From: a virus
Taxonomy: Duplodnaviria; Heunggongvirae; Uroviricota; Caudoviricetes
DNA length: 7,046 nt
Strand: one strand, 5' to 3'
IMG/VR virus record: IMGVR_UViG_2619619133_000005
Location: 1-7,046 of that record
The notes under the pieces were generated by a model. The model was given only the letters and a program-made list of their open reading frames with translations, made no database searches and had not been told where the DNA came from. A program made the position numbers and the translations under genes. Below, piece after piece: positions 1 through 7,046 of the stretch (position 1 is the stretch's first letter; the number at the start of each line of letters is the position of its first letter).

Positions 1-537
1 ATGGAACCCCTTCGTGAAATAAGAAATCGGCTGCTTAACGGCTGGCAATTATCAAAAATGCATACTTTTGAAGTGGCTGCCAGGCATCAGTCCTTCGCCC
101 TGGCGGCAGAGGAATTGTCGCTGAGCCCCAGTGCGGTAAGTCACCGTATCAATCAGCTGGAAGAAGAATTGGGCATTCAGTTGTTTGTTCGTTCCCATCG
201 CAAAGTGGAATTAACGCACGAGGGGAAACGTGTTTATTGGGCGCTAAAATCGTCGCTGGATACCCTGAACCAGGAAATTCTTGATATCAAAAATCAGGAG
301 TTATCGGGAACGTTAACTCTGTATTCCCGGCCCTCTATCGCCCAATGCTGGTTGGTGCCCGCATTAGGTGACTTTACACGCCGGTATCTAACAGTAAAAG
401 CCGCCGGGGTATGGGCGGGGGGCATTGAAACACCTTCGGTGGAAACTCCATCGGAAGGCTCTAAATTTTTTGGTTTTGACATGGATAACGAATTCATCAG
501 TGGTTTTGATGTAGGGGCATGGGGAGTATTACTCTGA
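1..537 (+). pseudogene. dsdC: LysR-family transcriptional regulator, N-terminal fragment (DsdC-like D-serine deaminase activator), fused to phage-derived sequence
   Basis: The ORF begins at nt 1 and carries a typical LysR HTH (…HTFEVAARHQSFALAAEELSLSPSAVSHRINQLEEELGIQLFVRSHRKVELT…) plus the start of an effector domain (…LTLYSRPSIAQCWLVPALGDFTRRY). It is only 178 aa against roughly 300 for a LysR protein, and the last ~50 codons (LTVKAAGVWAGG…) do not look LysR-like. The junction is therefore near nt ~380. The dsdC name rests on my recollection of the protein and on its position near a P4-type integrase; it is unverified. Confidence 0.6.
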
Positions 538-1265
538 TGGCGAAAAATGACTTTAAAGCGTTTGCAACTGATCGAAATGCCAATGTTATGTCGCAGGAGG
601 AATGGGAAGCGTTGCCTGCGCTTATATCCGGATTTACAGCAGGGAAAGCATCCAGTGCGCAAGTCAATAAGGTTATTCGGCAGGCCAGCTTTATTGCTGC
701 AGCTCTGGCCCAGTTTGTAAGTGATAAAACGCAACGGGATGTGCTTGATAATGGTGATCTGCCCGGTTTTGTTGAATTGCTGGGATCGGGGTTTGCTGTT
801 GAATACCTGAGCCGCAAGAATCCGTTTGGTGATATCAAATCGGATGGCACGGTGAAAACAGCTCTCGAAAACCTTGGTTTGGGAGAAGCGGCAACGAGGA
901 ACGTCGGAACGGATACCGGGCAAGTACCAGATATGAGTAGTTTTACAACGGGGCACTCTGGAGCAGCAGACTGGCCGATTCCTAAATCTGGATGGAGTAA
1001 GGGGCCGGATGGGGTAATTACACAATGGGGTATTTTCGGTTTCCCCGTTGGACAGACAGGGACGAATGTTGTTTTCCCGCTACCTTTCCCCGCGCGGGTC
1101 GAATCAATTACACTGACAATGGCAGATATCCAGGAGTCTCTGCTTTCTCCAGCAACCATGCCTGCTTATGGAGTTAACTCAACTGGTACTTCAAGAACGG
1201 GTTTTACAGCCCGTATGTCAGGCGCCGGTGGGTTTAATCTTTGCTATATAGCGAAAGGGAGATAA
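519..1265 (+). CDS. Phage tail fibre protein, C-terminal portion (short constant region plus variable cassette A)
   Basis: 248-aa ORF whose frame is open from nt 510. It contains the left crossover site inside the codons for ALENLGLGE. Its stop (1263-1265) is followed 4 nt later by a tail-fibre-assembly gene with a GGGAGA ribosome-binding site. No further fibre N-terminus or other structural genes lie upstream. Confidence 0.6.
862..887. repeat. Left 26-bp crossover site for a Pin/Gin/Hin-family invertase (gix/hix/pix-like)
   Basis: CTCTCGAAAACC-TT-GGTTTGGGAGAA has the 12-2-12 architecture and AAACC/GGTTT half-site cores typical of gix/hix sites. Its inner half is a perfect inverted repeat of the inner half of the right site at 2740-2765. 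Confidence 0.6.
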
Positions 1266-1269
1266 CAGA

Positions 1270-1713
1270 ATGAATAAAGTTAAAAGTGTTTACAGCCCGT
1301 CCGAAAATGCAATCTACAACGCAGCGCTATATGAAAGTTATATCAAGGAGGGGACATGGCCGCAGGATGGTATTGAAATCAGCGATGAGGATGCTGTCAG
1401 ATTTAATGGGGGAAATAAGCCAACAGGAAAAATGCTGGGAATGGTTTCAGGGACCCTTGCATGGGTTGATGAGCCGCCGCTTTCACCAGAACAGAAAATA
1501 TCAGATGCAGAAAACATGAAAGCCACATTTCGTGCAAAAGCTGACAGTGAAATATCCTGGCGTCAGGATGCTGTTGATGCTGGTATCGCAACTGATGAAG
1601 AAACTTCAACTCTCACCCAATGGAAGAAATACCGTGTGCTGCTGATGCGTGTTGATACGTCAACAGCACCCGATATTGAATGGCCTACGCCTCCGGCAGC
1701 TCAGGCCAGATGA
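1270..1713 (+). CDS. Tail fibre assembly (chaperone) protein, cognate to cassette A
   Basis: 147 aa, ATG 4 nt after the fibre stop codon, with a GGGAGA ribosome-binding site. The C-terminus (…DTSTAPDIEWPTPP…) is of the type seen in Tfa/Mu U/P2 G chaperones. Confidence 0.7.
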   Translation: MNKVKSVYSPSENAIYNAALYESYIKEGTWPQDGIEISDEDAVRFNGGNKPTGKMLGMVSGTLAWVDEPPLSPEQKISDAENMKATFRAKADSEISWRQDAVDAGIATDEETSTLTQWKKYRVLLMRVDTSTAPDIEWPTPPAAQAR

Positions 1714-2287
1714 CATCAGGCGCGGTGCTGGTATCTGTTGCCGTCACCGCGTCAATGTAATCCAGCACGACGTTAAGTCGGGTTGTTTCTGCCTGCGTCA
1801 GTTTCCGCCCGGCCTGTAATTTCAGCTGAATCAGACTAATGGAAGCCATTGCTGCATCAATCAGTGACTGGCGCTGTGCTTCTGCCGCGTCTACTGCGGC
1901 ACTGTGTTGTGCCTCAGTGTCTGTCACCCATTTCTCACCATCCCATTTATCGTATGGCGTTAACGGGGCGATAGTGGTTGTATTTTCGGGGTAATCACCC
2001 GGAGTTGTGATTTCTTTGGCGTCTCCCGTTTCGGTGTTATAGACGATTTCACCGCGATGGTCTGGCACATATTCCCATGAGTTTAAATCTGCCGAACGGC
2101 AGATTGCATAACCAGCCTTATGTATACCAGGTTCATCCAGACAGGAATATGCCGGGATACCAACACCAACGGCAAGATATTCATTTGAAGTGGAAATATA
2201 TTCCCGAGTTTCACCATCATAGCTATAGACGGTAATATTCCCCGCCTTCGTGGCAATAAGCTCGCTATTTAATACAGCGTTATCCAT
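1685..2287 (-). CDS. Tail fibre assembly (chaperone) protein, cognate to cassette B
   Basis: 200 aa on the minus strand with the same C-terminal motif (…DTSTAPDVIWPELPEA). Its ATG overlaps the stop of the upstream cassette-B ORF by 1 nt (TAATG), suggesting translational coupling. Its 3' end overlaps the converging tfa gene by 29 nt. Confidence 0.7.
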   Translation of the reverse strand: MDNAVLNSELIATKAGNITVYSYDGETREYISTSNEYLAVGVGIPAYSCLDEPGIHKAGYAICRSADLNSWEYVPDHRGEIVYNTETGDAKEITTPGDYPENTTTIAPLTPYDKWDGEKWVTDTEAQHSAAVDAAEAQRQSLIDAAMASISLIQLKLQAGRKLTQAETTRLNVVLDYIDAVTATDTSTAPDVIWPELPEA

Positions 2288-2793
2288 TATGCAGCCCTCA
2301 CGATAAAGTTAAATGCAATATTTCGCGCACGTGTTTCCGTTGATGTTCTGGCAACACGTGATGCATCAAAATAATAATTCGCCTGTTTATATGTACCACC
2401 TGTCGCAATTGATGCGAGATTTGGTGTCAATGTTGAAGAGGTAAATGCGCCGACAGTATTATTATTTGGCCCCGTGGTCATATCCAAAAAGCTACCTGTA
2501 ATATTTTGCAGCGTATCGCTCTGAGCACTCAATAACGCTCGCCCACTGTCCACTCCACGCCCATCATCCCAGCCACGAATAAACTCACCACGTAAATCAG
2601 GCAATTTATTTGTCGGGTAAGCCTTTGCCAGCTCCGGGTATTCTTCAGCAGAAAAAGCTGCACCATTGCATTTCAACCAGCCTGTCGGTGGTGTAGCTGA
2701 AGGCCACGGAACAGGCACACCAACCGGTAATGCAGAGCCTTCTCCCAAACCAACGTTTATGAAAATGCAGAAATAACGATCAAATGGCATCAT
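2287..2793 (-). CDS. Alternative tail-fibre C-terminal variable cassette B (silent in this orientation)
   Basis: The minus-strand ORF encodes …INVGLGEGSALPVGVPVPWPSATPPTGW…NIAFNFIVRAA, a typical fibre distal-tip sequence. The GLGE codons coincide with the right crossover site, so genuine coding is about 2290-2753. The leading MMPFDRYFCIF… is read-through of sequence outside the segment and has no convincing start signal. Confidence 0.55.
   Translation of the reverse strand: MMPFDRYFCIFINVGLGEGSALPVGVPVPWPSATPPTGWLKCNGAAFSAEEYPELAKAYPTNKLPDLRGEFIRGWDDGRGVDSGRALLSAQSDTLQNITGSFLDMTTGPNNNTVGAFTSSTLTPNLASIATGGTYKQANYYFDASRVARTSTETRARNIAFNFIVRAA
2740..2765. repeat. Right 26-bp crossover site for the invertase
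   Basis: TTCTCCCAAACC-AA-CGTTTATGAAAA. Its reverse complement shares 19 of the 20 inner positions with the left site. It sits about 55 bp upstream of the invertase start codon. Confidence 0.6.
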
Positions 2794-2819
2794 TCCTGCT
2801 TTTGTCAGGGAGATCTACC

Positions 2820-3374
2820 ATGCTTATTGGCTATGTACGTGTGTCAACAAATGACCAGAACACAGATCTACAACGTAATGCGCTGAACTGTGCAGGATGC
2901 GAGCTTATTTTTGAAGACAAGATAAGCGGTACAAAGTCCGAAAGGCCGGGACTGAAAAAACTGCTCAGGACATTATCGGCAGGTGACACTCTGGTCGTCT
3001 GGAAGCTGGATCGGCTGGGGCGTAGTATGCGGCATCTTGTCGTGCTGGTGGAGGAGTTGCGCGAACGAGGCATCAACTTTCGTAGTCTGACGGATTCAAT
3101 TGATACCAGCACACCAATGGGACGCTTTTTCTTTCATGTGATGGGTGCCCTGGCTGAAATGGAGCGTGAACTGATTGTTGAACGAACAAAAGTTGGACTG
3201 GAAGCTGCTCGCGCACAGGGACGAATTGGTGGACGTCGCCCCAAACTTACACCAGAACAATGGGAGCAGGCCGGACGATTAATTGCAGCAGGAATTCCTC
3301 GCCAGAAGGTAGCGATCATCTATGATATTGGTGTATCGACTTTGTATAAGAGGTTTCCAGCCAGGATTATATAA
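2820..3374 (+). CDS. pin: Site-specific DNA invertase, serine recombinase of the Pin/Gin/Hin/Cin family
   Basis: 184 aa starting MLIGYVRVSTNDQNTDLQRNAL…, carrying the catalytic Ser of the resolvase/invertase N-terminal domain and a C-terminal HTH (…GIPRQKVAIIYDIGVSTLYKRFP). A GGGAG ribosome-binding site lies 7 nt upstream of the ATG at 2820. The ORF-track start at 2784 is an artefactual 12-codon extension. Confidence 0.9.
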   Translation: MLIGYVRVSTNDQNTDLQRNALNCAGCELIFEDKISGTKSERPGLKKLLRTLSAGDTLVVWKLDRLGRSMRHLVVLVEELRERGINFRSLTDSIDTSTPMGRFFFHVMGALAEMERELIVERTKVGLEAARAQGRIGGRRPKLTPEQWEQAGRLIAAGIPRQKVAIIYDIGVSTLYKRFPARII

Positions 3375-3411
3375 AACCGCAGACACGCCGTATGCAAGAC
3401 GTGCTGCGGTT
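3375..3411. terminator. Candidate stem-loop terminator between the convergent pin and cargo genes
   Basis: An imperfect ~12-bp stem (AACCGCAGACACG … CGTGCTGCGGTT) starts 1 nt after the pin stop codon. The minus-strand side is followed by a U-rich run (UUUAUAUAAU); the plus-strand side is only weakly U-rich. Confidence 0.3.
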
Positions 3412-3570
3412 GGCTGATGCACTTTCGAGAGTGTATGTATTGAATTATTTCCAGCCGTTACTGATTTTACGTATTTTTTGTATGAGAGGAGTTGCACCAC
3501 CTCTTAAGCATAATTTGTTAGAATCATGGCAGCACAATAGCCATATATCCAATATAAAATACTTAACCTT

Positions 3571-4470
3571 CTAATCATTATGGAGTATTTGATCGCCGTA
3601 TGGCCAGCCATTTTCCCCAGGAAGGGTCATACCTAACATTGGCATAATACTAAGTTGTCCAATGGTAAATCCTAGAGCACTTGTATTACTGATTCCGGCA
3701 TAGGTCATATCAAGGGGGTTAGACTCTGAGCTGGACATAAAAAGATTTCTTGTGCCAATTCTATTCGCCATTGAGAACTGAATATGCCCACCAATTGTAT
3801 TTACGGTGTCCTGAGATATCCAGTTGTTTAACGCGATAAATGGCGCCCGCCACCAGTTAAGCGTGCCATTCTCAAAACGCCCCCTCGTCATCTCAATATC
3901 TTCCCGAAACTGCTGCTTTCTGTCTCCCAAGACTACCGGGGTACCTGTTGTCAGGTCAAGGCAGTCCTCAATTACAAGATTAGTGGGGTTTGATGGGGTG
4001 TTGTAGATCTTAATGATTTTATGTACCTGTGTTCTGAAACAGAATCCGTAAATAATCATCTCCGTTGCTACAGAACGGGGAAAAAACTGGCCAATATCCA
4101 GTATAAATTTTTCCGCGATTCCCTTTGTTAAAACTGCAATTTCATAAAGACTCGGGTAACTATCATAAGTCAACTCCGGCTGCTGAACATCATAATAATT
4201 AACTTCATGTAATGAAGATAATGATACGGCAAGTAACTCCTTCACATTTATACCGATCATTGTTCCTCCTGCAAAGCCGAAACCAAACTCCATAATTTTT
4301 TCCGGAGATAGACGGTATATGTCATTGGAGCGAATAACTGATACCGGAATCGAGAATAGTTTAGGACAGTGATTTGTCATTACACTTTCATGCTGGGTGA
4401 TTCTTGAGTCGCTTACGGCCCAGATACTTTCCCCTTCTTCCCTGTTTAGCCAGCAGGCTATTGCTGTCAT
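3571..4470 (-). CDS. Hypothetical cargo protein, 299 aa, with possible N-terminal-nucleophile (HslV/proteasome-beta-like) hydrolase motifs
   Basis: The start is set at the internal Met (MTAIACWLN…) because a GGGGG ribosome-binding site lies 6 nt upstream; the ORF-track start at 4608 is a 46-codon extension. Motifs seen by eye against my recollection of HslV: Thr directly after Met, AVSDSRIT (HslV IAGDGQAT), SVM…K with Asp-to-Lys spacing of 16, GFAGGT (identical to HslV), and TTGTPVV (HslV ITGNGDVV). The protein has large insertions relative to HslV. Confidence 0.6.
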   Translation of the reverse strand: MTAIACWLNREEGESIWAVSDSRITQHESVMTNHCPKLFSIPVSVIRSNDIYRLSPEKIMEFGFGFAGGTMIGINVKELLAVSLSSLHEVNYYDVQQPELTYDSYPSLYEIAVLTKGIAEKFILDIGQFFPRSVATEMIIYGFCFRTQVHKIIKIYNTPSNPTNLVIEDCLDLTTGTPVVLGDRKQQFREDIEMTRGRFENGTLNWWRAPFIALNNWISQDTVNTIGGHIQFSMANRIGTRNLFMSSSESNPLDMTYAGISNTSALGFTIGQLSIMPMLGMTLPGENGWPYGDQILHND

Positions 4471-4871
4471 TGAAAACCCCCTTTTAAGTAAAAAAATCAG
4501 ATTCAGATAGTGCATACATAATTTAGTCAAGTCATCTCTTTTAAGACGCATTGAGAAATGGTTGCTCAAGGTGCGCCAGTGAACGCGCACGAAAATAACT
4601 TCTTGCATTTCCCATTACACTCTGACTTTAGGGCCGCGTTAGATTTTAACATGGTGGCCGTGCATCCATTTAAATTGGTAATCTGGAGAATGAGTAACGC
4701 TGAATAGATTAACAATCTATGCGACTAACGGCCCTTAAAAGCGCAGCTCATAACATCGAATTTTACCAGTTTAGTCATTTTTAAAAAGTGCCCGAAAAAT
4801 GTTGTCCACGATTTGTGCTCTACGTCCCATCTTGACCTACTCCCTGATAATTCACTCAGAAGGCGGTTAGC

Positions 4872-4901
4872 AATGTCCGTTAAGTGCTCACAACGGACAT
4901 T
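4872..4901. promoter_or_regulatory. Perfect 10-bp inverted repeat with 10-nt spacer (AATGTCCGTT-N10-AACGGACATT) in the long intergenic region
   Basis: Seen directly in the sequence. It has no U-tract on either strand, so it is not a canonical intrinsic terminator. It may be a protein-binding palindrome or an RNA stem. Confidence 0.25.
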
Positions 4902-4951
4902 CAGCCCACTAAATCCGACCGTGTCGCTCAATATGCGGACAGGTTGTAGTG

Positions 4952-5554
4952 CTAACTGCATTGTAGCTGTGAGATTTCACCATCGATGGCTTCTATAACC
5001 TGTTTATAGCGGAGCATGACCTCATCATGAATCATCATTAATCCGCGGCCGTACTCTGTGGCTAGGATTGTGTATCTTTTCAGGTGTGCAAGATGTTCTT
5101 TGTTGCCAGTAATGTCACTTGCAACCTGCGTGGAGTCCAGCCGTTCGATAAGCGCATTATTGCCGCGATAGGAATCAATTAGGCTTCTTGCGCTTGTATA
5201 AAAAGCCACAATTTTTGAGAGTGTTTCTCTATGAACTTCAGGTAGGGATGCCGAGTTGGCTTCATAGAACGTGAAGTAGTTTTGAGTAATGGGGAAAATG
5301 TTATCGAACGGTGAGTTCCGGTCGTATTTTTCGATTTCTTCTGCCATTCTGGCCTGATACAGTTTAATCAGTGAGTCTATTTCCTCTCTGACACCCAATA
5401 GCGTTGTTATACGCTTCTCTCTGGCCGCTGTTGCCTGCTGTTTTGCCTGCTGTTTCACCTGAGTTGTCACTCCTATCATCGTGAAACAGCCACCTAAAAG
5501 AGCTGCTAAAAATGCGGAGATGAGATCTGAATATTCGTGCCAGAAGGTTAGCAT
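4952..5554 (-). CDS. Hypothetical cargo protein, 200 aa, with one N-terminal transmembrane helix and a helical, charged soluble domain
   Basis: The ORF has a hydrophobic N-terminal segment (DLISAFLAALLGGCFTMIGVTT), then a Q/K-rich linker and a helical-looking domain. It sits on the same strand as, and upstream of, the HslV-like gene. The ribosome-binding site is weak (GGAA). Confidence 0.55.
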   Translation of the reverse strand: MLTFWHEYSDLISAFLAALLGGCFTMIGVTTQVKQQAKQQATAAREKRITTLLGVREEIDSLIKLYQARMAEEIEKYDRNSPFDNIFPITQNYFTFYEANSASLPEVHRETLSKIVAFYTSARSLIDSYRGNNALIERLDSTQVASDITGNKEHLAHLKRYTILATEYGRGLMMIHDEVMLRYKQVIEAIDGEISQLQCS

Positions 5555-5570
5555 GGCGAAAATTCCATTG

Positions 5571-5593
5571 GGTTAAATTATGTCTATTTAACC
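5571..5593. promoter_or_regulatory. Operator-like palindrome (GGTTAAAT-N7-ATTTAACC) 17-40 bp upstream of the membrane-protein gene start
   Basis: A perfect 8-bp inverted repeat seen directly, overlapped by a second partial palindrome (AATTATGT/ACATAATg). Its position suits a repressor-binding site in the promoter region of the cargo gene. Confidence 0.25.
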
Positions 5594-5888
5594 ACATAAT
5601 GATACGAAGATACCTTCCAAAATGTTGCTATGACCCCATCTGTTGTTGCCTGGCTGGTGACGTGTCTGGGTATTAGCACCGTGCTCTCTCATTATCTAAG
5701 TCTGGGCCAATCCTCGTTCATAACAGGCATTCACTTCAGTCATGGCAGAAAGGTATGCATGCTGGAGAAGTCATGAAAGAAAAGAAGACTTCTGCCTCGT
5801 TTGTCATCACTGTTATCTTCTCATTGATTATGCAGGTCATAGTGGGGACACACAAAGCTTTGTACTATCCGATAGTGGTTAAGGTGGA

Positions 5889-7046
5889 TCACTCCCCCTT
5901 TTCATCAAGCCAATCCGCCCACCACTGCATCATTTCTCTGCGCTTATCGAGATACTGAGCATGGTTGTAAATACCGCGCACAGATCCGCCGTTGGCATGT
6001 GCCAGTTGCACTTCAATAGCGTCAGCAGGCCATTCGTGCTCGTTCATAATCGTGCTGAATTCATGCCTGAATCCGTGACCGCTTTCCAGACCCTCATAGC
6101 CGATTTGTTTGATCACAAGTAGCACCGCGTTCTCGCAAATTGGCTTCTTCTTATCGTTGCGCCCGGAAAAAACAAACTCTGATACTGGTTTAGTGATTGA
6201 GCTTAGTGTAGTGAGAAGTTCAACCACCTGGTCTGACATCGGGACCACATGAATTTTGCGTCCCTTCATTACACTGGCGTCGATGGTGATAATCCTGTTT
6301 TCAAAATCGACGTTCTTCCATAGCATGGAGCGAAGCTCTTTCGTTCTTAGGGCTGTGTAGCGCAAAACTTTAGTCGCAATGAGCGATACGATACTTCCTG
6401 AAAATGTTGCCAGTGCTTTATTGAATGCCGGGATCTGGTCTGCAGGAAGAAACGGGAAGTTTTTCTTGCGGTATCCCTTCATGGCGTCAGCAAGGTCAGG
6501 TGCCGGGTTATATTTAGCCCTACCAGTGACAATAGCGTAACGGAAAACCTCGCCGCATCTTCTGCGGGCTTTATTTGCTCGCTCCATTGCACCGCGATCT
6601 TCAAATCTGCGGATTACTTCCAGCAGTTGCATCGGCTCAATCTCCTGAATTTCAAGGCCGCCGATGATAGGTAAAATGTCGTCATCAAACATTTTTGCAA
6701 GTTCAGTCGCATACCCTACTGACCATACTTGCTTCTTGTGCTCGTACCATTCCTTGTAAATCGCACTAAATGAATTGTTGTTAGACGAAGCCTTTTTCGC
6801 CTTTACCGGATCGATGCCAACCGAGATGTCTTTCCTCGCAGTCCATGCCTTATCCCTTGCTTCCTGCAAAGTCATAAGCGGATATTTTCCGACGGTCAGG
6901 ATTTTCTCCTTACCGTCAATCTTGTAGCGAAGCTGCCATACCTTTTTCCCGGATACAGGAACATAAAGGTACAGGCCATTACCATCGAGAAGGCGGTATG
7001 GTTTTTCTTTCGGCTTTGCTGCTTCAATCTGCTTAACGGTGAGCAT
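5889..7046 (-). CDS. intS: Phage integrase, tyrosine recombinase of the P4 type
   Basis: 385-aa ORF starting with the ATG at the window edge. The N-terminus (MLTVKQIEAAKPKEKPYRLLDGNGLYLYVPVSGKKVWQLRYK…) is P4-like, and the C-terminal catalytic region has …GHGFRHEFST… and …RGIYNHAQY (His-x-x-Arg and Tyr nucleophile). The intS name is inferred from length and from proximity to dsdC as at the E. coli argW prophage site; it is unverified. Upstream signals lie outside the window. Confidence 0.85.
   Translation of the reverse strand: MLTVKQIEAAKPKEKPYRLLDGNGLYLYVPVSGKKVWQLRYKIDGKEKILTVGKYPLMTLQEARDKAWTARKDISVGIDPVKAKKASSNNNSFSAIYKEWYEHKKQVWSVGYATELAKMFDDDILPIIGGLEIQEIEPMQLLEVIRRFEDRGAMERANKARRRCGEVFRYAIVTGRAKYNPAPDLADAMKGYRKKNFPFLPADQIPAFNKALATFSGSIVSLIATKVLRYTALRTKELRSMLWKNVDFENRIITIDASVMKGRKIHVVPMSDQVVELLTTLSSITKPVSEFVFSGRNDKKKPICENAVLLVIKQIGYEGLESGHGFRHEFSTIMNEHEWPADAIEVQLAHANGGSVRGIYNHAQYLDKRREMMQWWADWLDEKGE

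Follow-up and report, generated by a model that had tools for sequence, protein, structure and literature searches.

A probable defective prophage stump at Escherichia coli argW with an invertible tail-fibre segment and a predicted proteasome-like cargo protein

Phages Mu (G segment, Gin) and P1 (C segment, Cin) carry an invertase gene beside a segment whose inversion exchanges the fibre C-termini and, with them, the chaperones, at 26-bp sites with a 2-bp core. In E. coli K-12, the prophage e14 lies at icd and has the order baseplate gene, stf, tfa, tfa', stf', pin and cargo, the cargo after pin being the restriction gene mcrA. It is defective yet keeps its integrase and accessory genes, and the annotation of xisE and of a duplicated icd end (icdC) suggests that it retains both of its ends. 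The e14 segment is inverted in vivo by PinE and also, in trans from another prophage, by PinQ; its inversion is reported to yield a chimeric fibre that stops T2 from adsorbing (PMC12529663). CPS-53 (KplE1), also in K-12, occupies argW, retains fibre and tfa fragments, the directionality-factor gene torI and pawZ, the distal att copy, and carries gtrABS in the cargo slot after intS, with dsdC intact. In O157:H7, a remnant at thrW has an internal deletion that joins its fibre module to a replication gene; its pinE is intact and accessory genes adjoin. Prophage stumps of the kind described here are already known from e14 and CPS-53, and only the cargo enzyme is new.

The stretch of DNA that was analysed, hereafter the window, is 7,046 nt long and is 100% identical to contig JNMH01000013.1 of assembly GCA_000700245.1. 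Its features are as follows.

1-388, plus strand: host dsdC, 5' fragment with codons 1-129 of 311 (HTH domain and linker); left border of the deletion
383-388, no strand: deletion joint, GGTATC, a 6-bp microhomology common to dsdC and the phage baseplate gene
383-537, plus strand: 3' stub of a DUF2612/baseplate-wedge gene, its last 155 nt, identical to the end of the DUF2612 gene of prophage L004
537-1265, plus strand: stf, complete tail-fibre gene, 242 aa (Pfam PF21882; PHROG tail-fibre families, 1e-71)
862-887, no strand: left crossover site, 26 bp, CTCTCGAAAACC-TT-GGTTTGGGAGAA, within stf; inverted repeat I2
1270-1713, plus strand: tfa, fibre assembly chaperone cognate to the Gp53-like tip, 147 aa (Pfam Caudo_TAP, 1e-32; PHROG 188)
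1685-2287, minus strand: tfa', TfaE-like chaperone cognate to the alternative tip, 200 aa (Pfam Caudo_TAP, 7e-32)
2287-2790, minus strand: alternative fibre tip, StfE-like, with a Collar domain (Pfam Collar, 1.6e-15)
2740-2765, no strand: right crossover site, 26 bp, TTCTCCCAAACC-AA-CGTTTATGAAAA, inverted relative to the left site
2820-3374, plus strand: pin, Din-family serine DNA invertase, 184 aa (Pfam Resolvase and HTH_7)
3571-4470, minus strand: cargo gene 1, 299 aa, predicted proteasome-beta/HslV-like Ntn-hydrolase fold with a C-terminal extension
4952-5554, minus strand: cargo gene 2, 200 aa, N-terminal membrane helix and four-helix bundle
5889-7046, minus strand: intS, tyrosine integrase for argW, 385 aa (Pfam Arm-DNA-bind_3, Phage_int_M and Phage_integrase)

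Phage-derived DNA occupies 383-7046 and consists, from left to right, of a baseplate-gene 3' end, a tail-fibre gene, two chaperones, an alternative tip, the Pin invertase, two orphan cargo genes and IntS. This 6.7-kb element is very probably the integrase-proximal right end of a ~40-kb E. coli temperate prophage integrated at argW. A sequence-only reading of the window had placed a prophage remnant beside a tRNA site and had proposed a comparison with an intact prophage at that site. The tRNA gene is indeed argW, and the match in strain NADC1036 shows what the stump has lost. NADC1036 carries an intact-looking 40-kb prophage at argW that runs from intS to torI, has the att core CTGCAGGGGACACCA at both ends and is colinear with window positions 810-7046 (7 mismatches in 6237 nt, no indels). 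Left of 810 it differs: its baseplate gene is of the YmfQ type, not the DUF2612 type, and its fibre has another N-terminus. Because no progenitor identical over the whole stump was found, we infer the deleted content from this mosaic relative. With NADC1036 as proxy, ~33.3 kb of phage DNA were lost, and the modules present in the 40-kb relative and missing from the stump are head, tail, lysis, Q, O/P, cI/cro and recombination. The parent phage probably combined a lambdoid early region with a contractile tail bearing an e14-type fibre module, and had integrated at argW via IntS.

The stump follows e14 in gene order and in being defective with integrase and accessory genes kept, but differs in its integration site, integrase and post-pin cargo. 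With CPS-53 it shares the argW site, an argW-proximal flank identical over the 40 nt compared, an IntS that is 99% identical (382/385 residues) and a cargo slot after intS; unlike CPS-53, it has pin and a complete fibre gene, and its cargo is not gtrABS. The thrW remnant of O157:H7 resembles it in the joining of a fibre module to an unrelated gene, but sits at another tRNA site, keeps immunity-region genes and, with frameshifts in its fibre and tfa genes, is older.

Both recombinase genes are full-length, as the sequence-only reading had stated (IntS, 385 aa; Pin, 184 aa). Its statement that the virion genes are gone also held: capsid, terminase, tail, lysis, replication and repressor genes were all absent from the window, so that head, tail, lysis, replication and immunity functions are missing. 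The attachment site is the 3' end of argW, 162-176 nt past the window. Within the window the att core was absent even with up to three mismatches allowed. We searched for exact att cores in L005, a 20.5-kb locus that extends 10 kb leftward of the window, and found one copy, just past the right edge, where argW and the core adjoin intS; NADC1036 and K-12 each have two. This agrees with the earlier proposal that the left attachment site was deleted and the element fixed in place. The excisionase (recombination directionality factor) TorI, whose loss that reading did not mention, is missing as well, which leaves an inventory of one att site, one integrase and no directionality factor. The locus therefore has the hallmarks of a defective prophage: phage genes lie at a phage integration site with the cognate integrase, the genes for lytic growth and virion formation are missing relative to the 40-kb relative, and, by sequence, an att site and the excision function have been lost. 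Since the distal att core and TorI are deleted, the stump is predicted to be unable to excise, and it can apparently no longer replicate or build particles.

The deletion joint was mapped by comparing three sequences, namely the window, dsdC of K-12 and prophage L004. Positions 1-388 are 100% identical to nucleotides 1-388 of K-12 dsdC, with divergence from 389, and phage identity begins at 383, so that the two identities overlap in GGTATC. The phage-derived region had been placed from 380 onwards; the region is confirmed, with its start moved to 383-389. In L004 the DUF2612 gene directly abuts the fibre gene, and the baseplate stub in the window gives a weak PHROG structural-protein match. 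These data indicate that two GGTATC hexamers, in dsdC and close to the end of the phage baseplate gene, recombined illegitimately in a single event, with the loss of ~34 kb. The lost DNA would comprise 548 nt at the 3' end of dsdC, TorI and the distal att core, along with every immunity, replication, lysis, head and tail gene. DsdC is truncated after residue 129, its Pfam HTH_1 match (residues 18-76 of the fragment) being retained, and the fragment is joined in frame to the baseplate stub, giving a 178-aa chimeric ORF (1-537). As a stump, the element mainly records at the level of single nucleotides the grounding of a lysogen by one microhomology deletion, which also damaged dsdC, the host regulator of D-serine use.

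Only a fibre tip module had been thought to survive from the virion genes. In addition to the tips, the complete fibre gene, both Tfa chaperones, the crossover sites and the baseplate stub are present. In stf a constant N-terminal part is followed by a Gp53-like_C tip. The ATG of stf overlaps the preceding stop codon (TGATG), and fibre genes of the same length begin at the same place in intact prophages. The tfa and tfa' genes face each other, and each tip has its own chaperone; tfa' matches PHROG 105 (2.5e-97) and is called tfaE in the NADC1036 annotation. Each crossover site is identical at 26/26 positions to the corresponding left or right site of the e14 P segment, and the central dinucleotides match between the two sites (TT at the left and AA at the right, on the plus strand). 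Between the sites lies an invertible segment of 1.88 kb (~874-2753), compared with ~1.8 kb in e14. In-silico inversion joins the alternative tip to the stf constant part and gives a 267-aa ORF, the same gene as is found in locus L006. The exchange is in frame, and the fibre therefore has 242 aa with the Gp53-like_C tip or 267 aa with the Collar tip.

Loci L005 and L007 have the orientation of the window, whereas L006 and L008 have 874-2753 inverted, with endpoints that fall at the core of the left site; all four share the same deletion joint. As both orientations occur among isolates with the same joint, the segment must have inverted after the deletion. This suggests that the kept fibre module is a still working DNA switch. 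A Pin/Gin/Cin/Hin-group invertase gene adjoins the segment, as in Din-family switches. Its real start is at 2820 rather than 2784, and the full-length product matches the PHROG DNA invertase family (1.7e-96) and is 97% identical to PinE of e14 (176/181 residues); the 5' part of the gene, which in Din-family switches contains a Fis-dependent recombinational enhancer, differs from pinE at 5 positions within its first 200 nt, and the allele in the window carries a derived A125V change. Either the Pin encoded here or a different Din-family enzyme supplied in trans carried out the inversion. The arrangement is that of the Mu and P1 switches, with an invertase gene adjoining a segment that exchanges fibre C-termini and chaperones, but here it persists in a dead prophage that has no virion to decorate and whose late promoter upstream of the switch is gone, the host dsdC 5' region standing in its place. 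A fibre segment that flipped on after the death of its phage bears on the report that cryptic-prophage switches can alter phage adsorption. The fibre tips of the stump and e14 are 29-57% identical, and since the StfE2-like product is only ~30% identical to e14 StfE2, the T2-blocking function is not transferable to the stump fibre.

The cargo genes had been credited with good start signals. This held for cargo gene 1, whose true start is at 4470 behind a strong AAGGGGG Shine-Dalgarno sequence, but not for cargo gene 2, whose ribosome-binding match is weak. The 299-aa product of cargo gene 1 is a predicted threonine N-terminal-nucleophile hydrolase, with the Ntn alpha-beta-beta-alpha sandwich of T1 peptidases as its predicted fold. 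Its homologues all begin with MT. T1 peptidases have an N-terminal Thr nucleophile with Asp17- and Lys33-type partners; the candidate counterparts here, T2, D21 and K37, do not vary across 36 diverse family members, and the Asp-Lys spacing of 16 matches. The sole hhalign stretch against HslV, a weak one (E 0.25), pairs D21 and K37 with HslV D18 and K34. Searches with Pfam PF00227 gave no match for the protein itself and one among the 36 family members (E 0.08), and no PDB sequence matched it. It differs from the proteasome beta superfamily (20S beta, HslV, Anbu, BPH) in having no significant sequence match to it, in adding a C-terminal extension of ~70-100 aa and in having no adjoining hslU- or AAA-type partner gene. 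The family sits in prophage accessory slots: in a Serratia lambdoid prophage beside a RelA_SpoT-domain gene and cI, in P2-like prophages either adjoining ogr or flanked by gpV and gpS, and at a site beside a P4-type integrase, with one case of ogr and the homologue alone between host genes. From this genomic context, cargo gene 1 is a candidate phage-exclusion gene; PADLOC-DB v2 returned nothing for the protein at E<=1. We propose only tentatively that it belongs to an undescribed, widespread group of stand-alone proteasome-beta-like threonine hydrolases (869 representative clusters) with a single-gene phage-exclusion or abortive-infection function in the accessory slots of temperate phages and islands, and that the stump persists because of it. 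If so, the family would be a new enzymatic class among prophage-encoded defences. As an uncharacterised proteasome-like family that recurs in such slots, it is a concrete candidate for defence-gene testing.

For the 200-aa product of cargo gene 2, PADLOC-DB v2 gave only a weak match of the transmembrane region to ZorB (E 0.002), short of a defence-model assignment. The slot between the pin/fibre module and intS varies among argW prophages, holding gtrABS in K-12 and other genes in GPT24-02 and MEI1A-0323. The full cargo block occurs in 7 of 5426 complete E. coli genomes and its two flanks in ~1300. The two cargo genes are probably independent members of the accessory repertoire with which temperate phages exclude other phages.

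The intact ORFs of the stump are best explained by a recent deletion, with selection unnecessary. The stump differs from its intact-looking relative only at the 7 positions given above and its dsdC stub is 100% identical to K-12, which indicates that it is young, too young for ORF integrity to say much about selection. The selective retention of useful cargo put forward in the sequence-only reading was not borne out, as a single microhomology deletion accounts for the whole structure. A broader form of that idea is possible but doubtful, namely that selection keeps the cargo, and perhaps the Pin/fibre switch, for a host benefit such as phage exclusion while dangerous genes are purged. The accessory-slot positions of cargo gene 1 homologues in other prophages and islands, mcrA in the equivalent e14 slot and the reported T2 block by e14 inversion (PMC12529663) are consistent with it. 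Against it, intact ORFs are expected in so young a stump without selection, and a sibling isolate differs by just two SNPs, both amino-acid changes, one in pin and one in intS. The dsdC-phage junction was not found among the 5426 complete genomes, neither cargo gene matches the defence database, and the divergence of the tips from StfE2 forbids transfer of the e14 function.

Selection may instead have acted on the deletion itself, by purging inducible lethal phage genes, by inactivating dsdC or both, with the right arm a leftover past the breakpoint. We hold this, too, to be rather unlikely. All lysis and replication genes were removed and DsdC was cut, and publications on the locus present argW as a phage integration site and tie dsdC loss to niche (PMC4366372, PMC8787464); a breakpoint at a chance 6-bp microhomology is, however, equally expected for a neutral event. 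A self-contained integrative island or phage satellite with integrase, cargo, invertase and fibre genes is highly improbable. The element is compact and begins with a tRNA-linked integrase, and some satellites carry few genes, but it is 99.9% colinear with the right arm of a 40-kb prophage, its left end slices a baseplate gene and a host gene, and a second att core, an excisionase and replication or regulatory genes are all absent. Least probable of all is an assembly chimera: prophage regions are repeat-rich and misassembly is common, but 13 contigs encode the exact 178-aa fusion protein, with the same flanks in each, and they come from three or more sources, among them an NCBI assembly and independent runs in SRA and ERA. 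On contig JNMH01000013.1 these flanks are evgSA-emrKY-dsdAX on the left, the same genes as in L005, and argW-yfdC-mlaA on the right.

The phage-derived part of the window (383-7046) is best described as the 6.7-kb, integrase-proximal right end of an E. coli argW prophage, a stump that one deletion appears to have cut. Its gene order was taken from an ORF listing and family scans.

Gene order of the window
1-388: N-terminus of a LysR-type regulator (dsdC)
Between the dsdC part and the fibre gene: short stub of a phage structural gene
537-1265 (+): tail-fibre gene stf, 242 aa, Gp53-like_C tip
1270-1713 (+): fibre chaperone gene tfa
1685-2287 (-): second fibre chaperone gene, on the opposite strand
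2287-2790 (-): alternative fibre tip, Collar domain
2820-3374: serine invertase gene pin
3571-4470 (-): ORF without a family match (cargo gene 1)
4952-5554 (-): ORF without a family match (cargo gene 2)
5889-7046 (-): tyrosine integrase gene intS

A tRNA scan of the window found none, argW lying just outside. The Rfam scan of the window gave nothing but a sub-threshold IS009 match at 1475-1664 (+) inside tfa (47 bits; gathering score 117), probably a sign that tfa genes of prophages resemble one another and not of an RNA gene. A small ORF at 5763-5958 (+), beginning MKEKKTSASFVITVIFSLIMQVIVG, has GGAG as its ribosome-binding site, includes a hydrophobic stretch and runs antisense into the intS 3' end; it is without annotation in related genomes.

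The window is 100% identical to contig JNMH01000013.1 of GCA_000700245.1. In this 20.5-kb host locus (L005), evgS-evgA-emrK-emrY-dsdA-dsdX lie to its left and the tRNA-Arg gene argW, yfdC and mlaA to its right. The same interval in K-12, from argW to dsdC, houses the cryptic prophage CPS-53. Published papers on this locus (PMC4366372, PMC8787464) treat argW as a site where phages integrate and take up the loss of dsdC. Window positions 1-388 match K-12 dsdC with 0 mismatches and diverge afterwards, while the match to the baseplate gene (DUF2612 family) of another prophage locus, L004, begins at 383. The parental sequences therefore overlap by GGTATC (383-388), the signature of an illegitimate, microhomology-mediated deletion. 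The joint is in frame: DsdC residues 1-129 (HTH domain and linker) run on into the 49 codons that end the baseplate gene, and in TGATG (535-539) the stop codon of this chimera and the fibre-gene ATG overlap. The in-frame fusion and the overlap suggest that stf-tfa may now be driven by the host dsdC promoter; the truncated DsdC regulator might still bind DNA. An exact-sequence lookup placed the 178-aa ORF spanning the joint on 13 contigs, JNMH01000013.1 among them, and the joint was found in 0 of 5426 complete E. coli genomes.

The sequence-only reading had proposed comparison with an intact prophage at the same tRNA site. Such a relative is present in strain NADC1036, where an intact-looking prophage of ~40 kb occupies argW. 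It begins with intS, both window cargo genes, pin and the fibre module, continues through baseplate, tail, head and terminase genes to the lysis genes, Q and the O/P replication genes, and ends with cro/cI, bet/exo and torI. Its 15-bp att core, CTGCAGGGGACACCA, is found at the argW end, with a second copy 73 bp past torI. Window positions 810-7046 are colinear with this prophage, with 7 mismatches and 0 indels in 6237 nt. Left of 810 the two differ, the baseplate gene and fibre N-terminus being a different mosaic variant, so NADC1036 is a close relative and not the exact progenitor. Judged by NADC1036, the deletion removed about 33 kb from the phage, together with 548 nt at the end of dsdC and the intergenic DNA carrying the distal att copy. 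The only exact att core in the stump locus is the one at argW, and none was found in the window even at three mismatches, in agreement with the earlier suggestion that the left attachment site had been deleted. Also gone is torI, which the K-12 annotation gives as the argW prophage's recombination directionality factor. Since one att site is left and the directionality factor is missing, the integrase should be unable to excise the stump; to call the element probably fixed in place was, if anything, an understatement.

Both recombinase genes are full-length, as had been noted: IntS is identical to K-12 IntS at 382 of 385 residues, and Pin to e14 PinE at 176 of 181. The invertible fibre segment is bounded by inverted 26-bp crossover sites at 862-887 and 2740-2765, which share the same central dinucleotide and are each 26/26 identical to those of the e14 P segment. 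Two contigs from other sequencing runs (L006 and L008) correspond to the window with 874-2753 inverted and have an identical dsdC-phage joint; the window orientation is seen in L005 and in a further contig, L007. Because both orientations share the deletion joint, the inversion postdates the deletion. The fibre product has 242 aa and a Gp53-like tip in one state, and 267 aa and a Collar tip in the other. We considered whether contig breaks within the segment in L007 and L008 reflect mixed orientations in one culture and rejected this, since the breaks fall mid-segment, near the tfa overlap and away from the crossover sites. Din-family invertases act in trans, so the flip is no proof that the stump's own pin copy is the active one. 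PinQ of prophage Qin, like PinE, inverts the e14 segment (2025; PMC12529663). The window genome differs from L006 by two SNPs only, at 3193 and 5896, both nonsynonymous and one in each recombinase (Pin A125V and IntS V384G in the window). At both positions L006, NADC1036 and K-12 have the other residue in common, suggesting that the window residues are derived. Despite the identical crossover sites, the fibre tips share just 29-57% identity with their e14 counterparts (window 874-2753 against e14 in L021, 11791-13619). The inverted state also yields a small leader-plus-tip product of 142 aa, 30% identical to e14 StfE2, which is reported to block T2 adsorption (PMC12529663). With identity this low, we did not carry the anti-T2 function over to the stump.

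A single deletion between chance hexamer repeats suffices for the whole structure. The dsdC stub identical to K-12, the still open chimeric ORF and the 99.9% identity to a live-looking relative all indicate that the stump is young, and in a young stump full-length ORFs are expected, useful or not. An older remnant at thrW in O157:H7 (L023, NZ_CP045975.1, 8900-12800) differs in this respect: pinE is intact, but the fibre and chaperone genes are frameshifted, and an internal deletion has fused the fibre gene to a phage replication gene. The sequence-only reading was right in seeing a grounded remnant, and its interpretation is supported in part: selective retention of useful cargo stays a hypothesis, made plausible by the places where the cargo occurs in other genomes. 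The deletion may have spread through loss of lethal genes, through dsdC inactivation or by drift. The stump adds one more example to a well-known kind: its integrase end is that of CPS-53 at argW, and its Pin/fibre switch is of the e14 type. It differs from those two cryptic prophages in the loss of the directionality factor and of one att site, and in a deletion that ran into a host gene.

The two cargo genes lie between pin and intS. The whole 2.5-kb block (3377-5866) was found in only 7 of the 5426 complete genomes; its ends, the first ~125 nt and last ~165 nt, were found in about 1300 of them. Such a distribution is consistent with a variable slot whose flanks are conserved. The content differs in other argW prophages: the slot of the K-12 prophage contains gtrABS, that of GPT24-02 a gene for a 445-aa protein and a homologue of cargo gene 2, and that of MEI1A-0323 an XF1762-family gene and another; the equivalent position in e14 is taken by the restriction gene mcrA. 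The block also follows lambda-type fibre genes, in strain Bongo and on the 111-kb plasmid pSM107_MCR (NZ_CP130669.1). On the plasmid (L002 8001-10490), the whole block, 99% identical, comes immediately behind lambda-type J, lom, stf and tfa, with a shufflon nearby, indicating that it moves between phage backbones and replicons. Consensus promoter and terminator sites are no commoner in the cargo region than in shuffled sequence. An obligatory pairing of the cargo genes was rejected: gene 1 homologues occur without gene 2, gene 2 occurs beside other neighbours, and the partner genes in Serratia, GPT24-02 and Rahnella are not homologous. The two genes are thus separable units.

Cargo gene 1 starts at 4470 (299 aa), behind AAGGGGG, rather than at the upstream ATG of a 345-aa ORF, and every homologue begins MT. 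Its protein had no match in Pfam, PADLOC, PHROG or NCBIfam, and matched phage HslV- and proteasome-like proteins in BFVD. An exhaustive profile search returned 869 representative relatives; among the matches listed, nearly all are ~270-300 aa and align from residue 1. T2, D21, K37, G68, G182 and G228 are invariant in 36 members that are 20-60% identical to the window protein. The Thr right behind the initiator Met and the spacing of 16 residues between Asp and Lys correspond to the Thr1/Asp17/Lys33 pattern of proteasome-type hydrolases. A profile search of PDB sequences with the family gave no meaningful match, and hhalign of the family against E. coli HslV was not significant (E 0.25). As the link at sequence level is not significant, we regard the protein as proteasome-like by its fold and probable mechanism, and not as a demonstrated family member.

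Members of this unannotated family, with its proteasome-beta-like fold, are almost always single genes in accessory-gene slots of prophages and islands (L013-L017, L028-L030), for example:

Serratia lambdoid prophage: flanked by cI and by the recT region, which has a RelA_SpoT-domain gene
Providencia P2-like prophage: between ogr copies, beside gpD
Rahnella P2-like prophage: gpV on one side, gpS on the other
Citrobacter island: adjoining a P4-type integrase gene
Photobacterium island: with Mrr- and HNH-domain genes
L030, 6001-7225: with a lone P2-type ogr between host genes (ahpCF side), nothing else of phage left

The last of these looks like another minimal remnant that kept gene 1 cargo. 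The literature searched yielded no description of a proteasome-like phage-defence protein, and this family, without description in the libraries and literature searched, is the one unfamiliar item in the stump.

The 200-aa protein of cargo gene 2 combines a single membrane helix at the N-terminus with a helical bundle. No useful match to it came from Pfam, PADLOC, PHROG or NCBIfam, and a fold search returned generic four-helix bundles only. The family is narrow, and its neighbours differ elsewhere. In Serratia (L018-L020, 6001-9708), the homologue of this protein lies in a small chromosomal islet, next to an unrelated protein of 261 aa and an ATPase (AAA_15/AAA_21) that has a 224-aa partner; the arrangement recalls that of defence islets.
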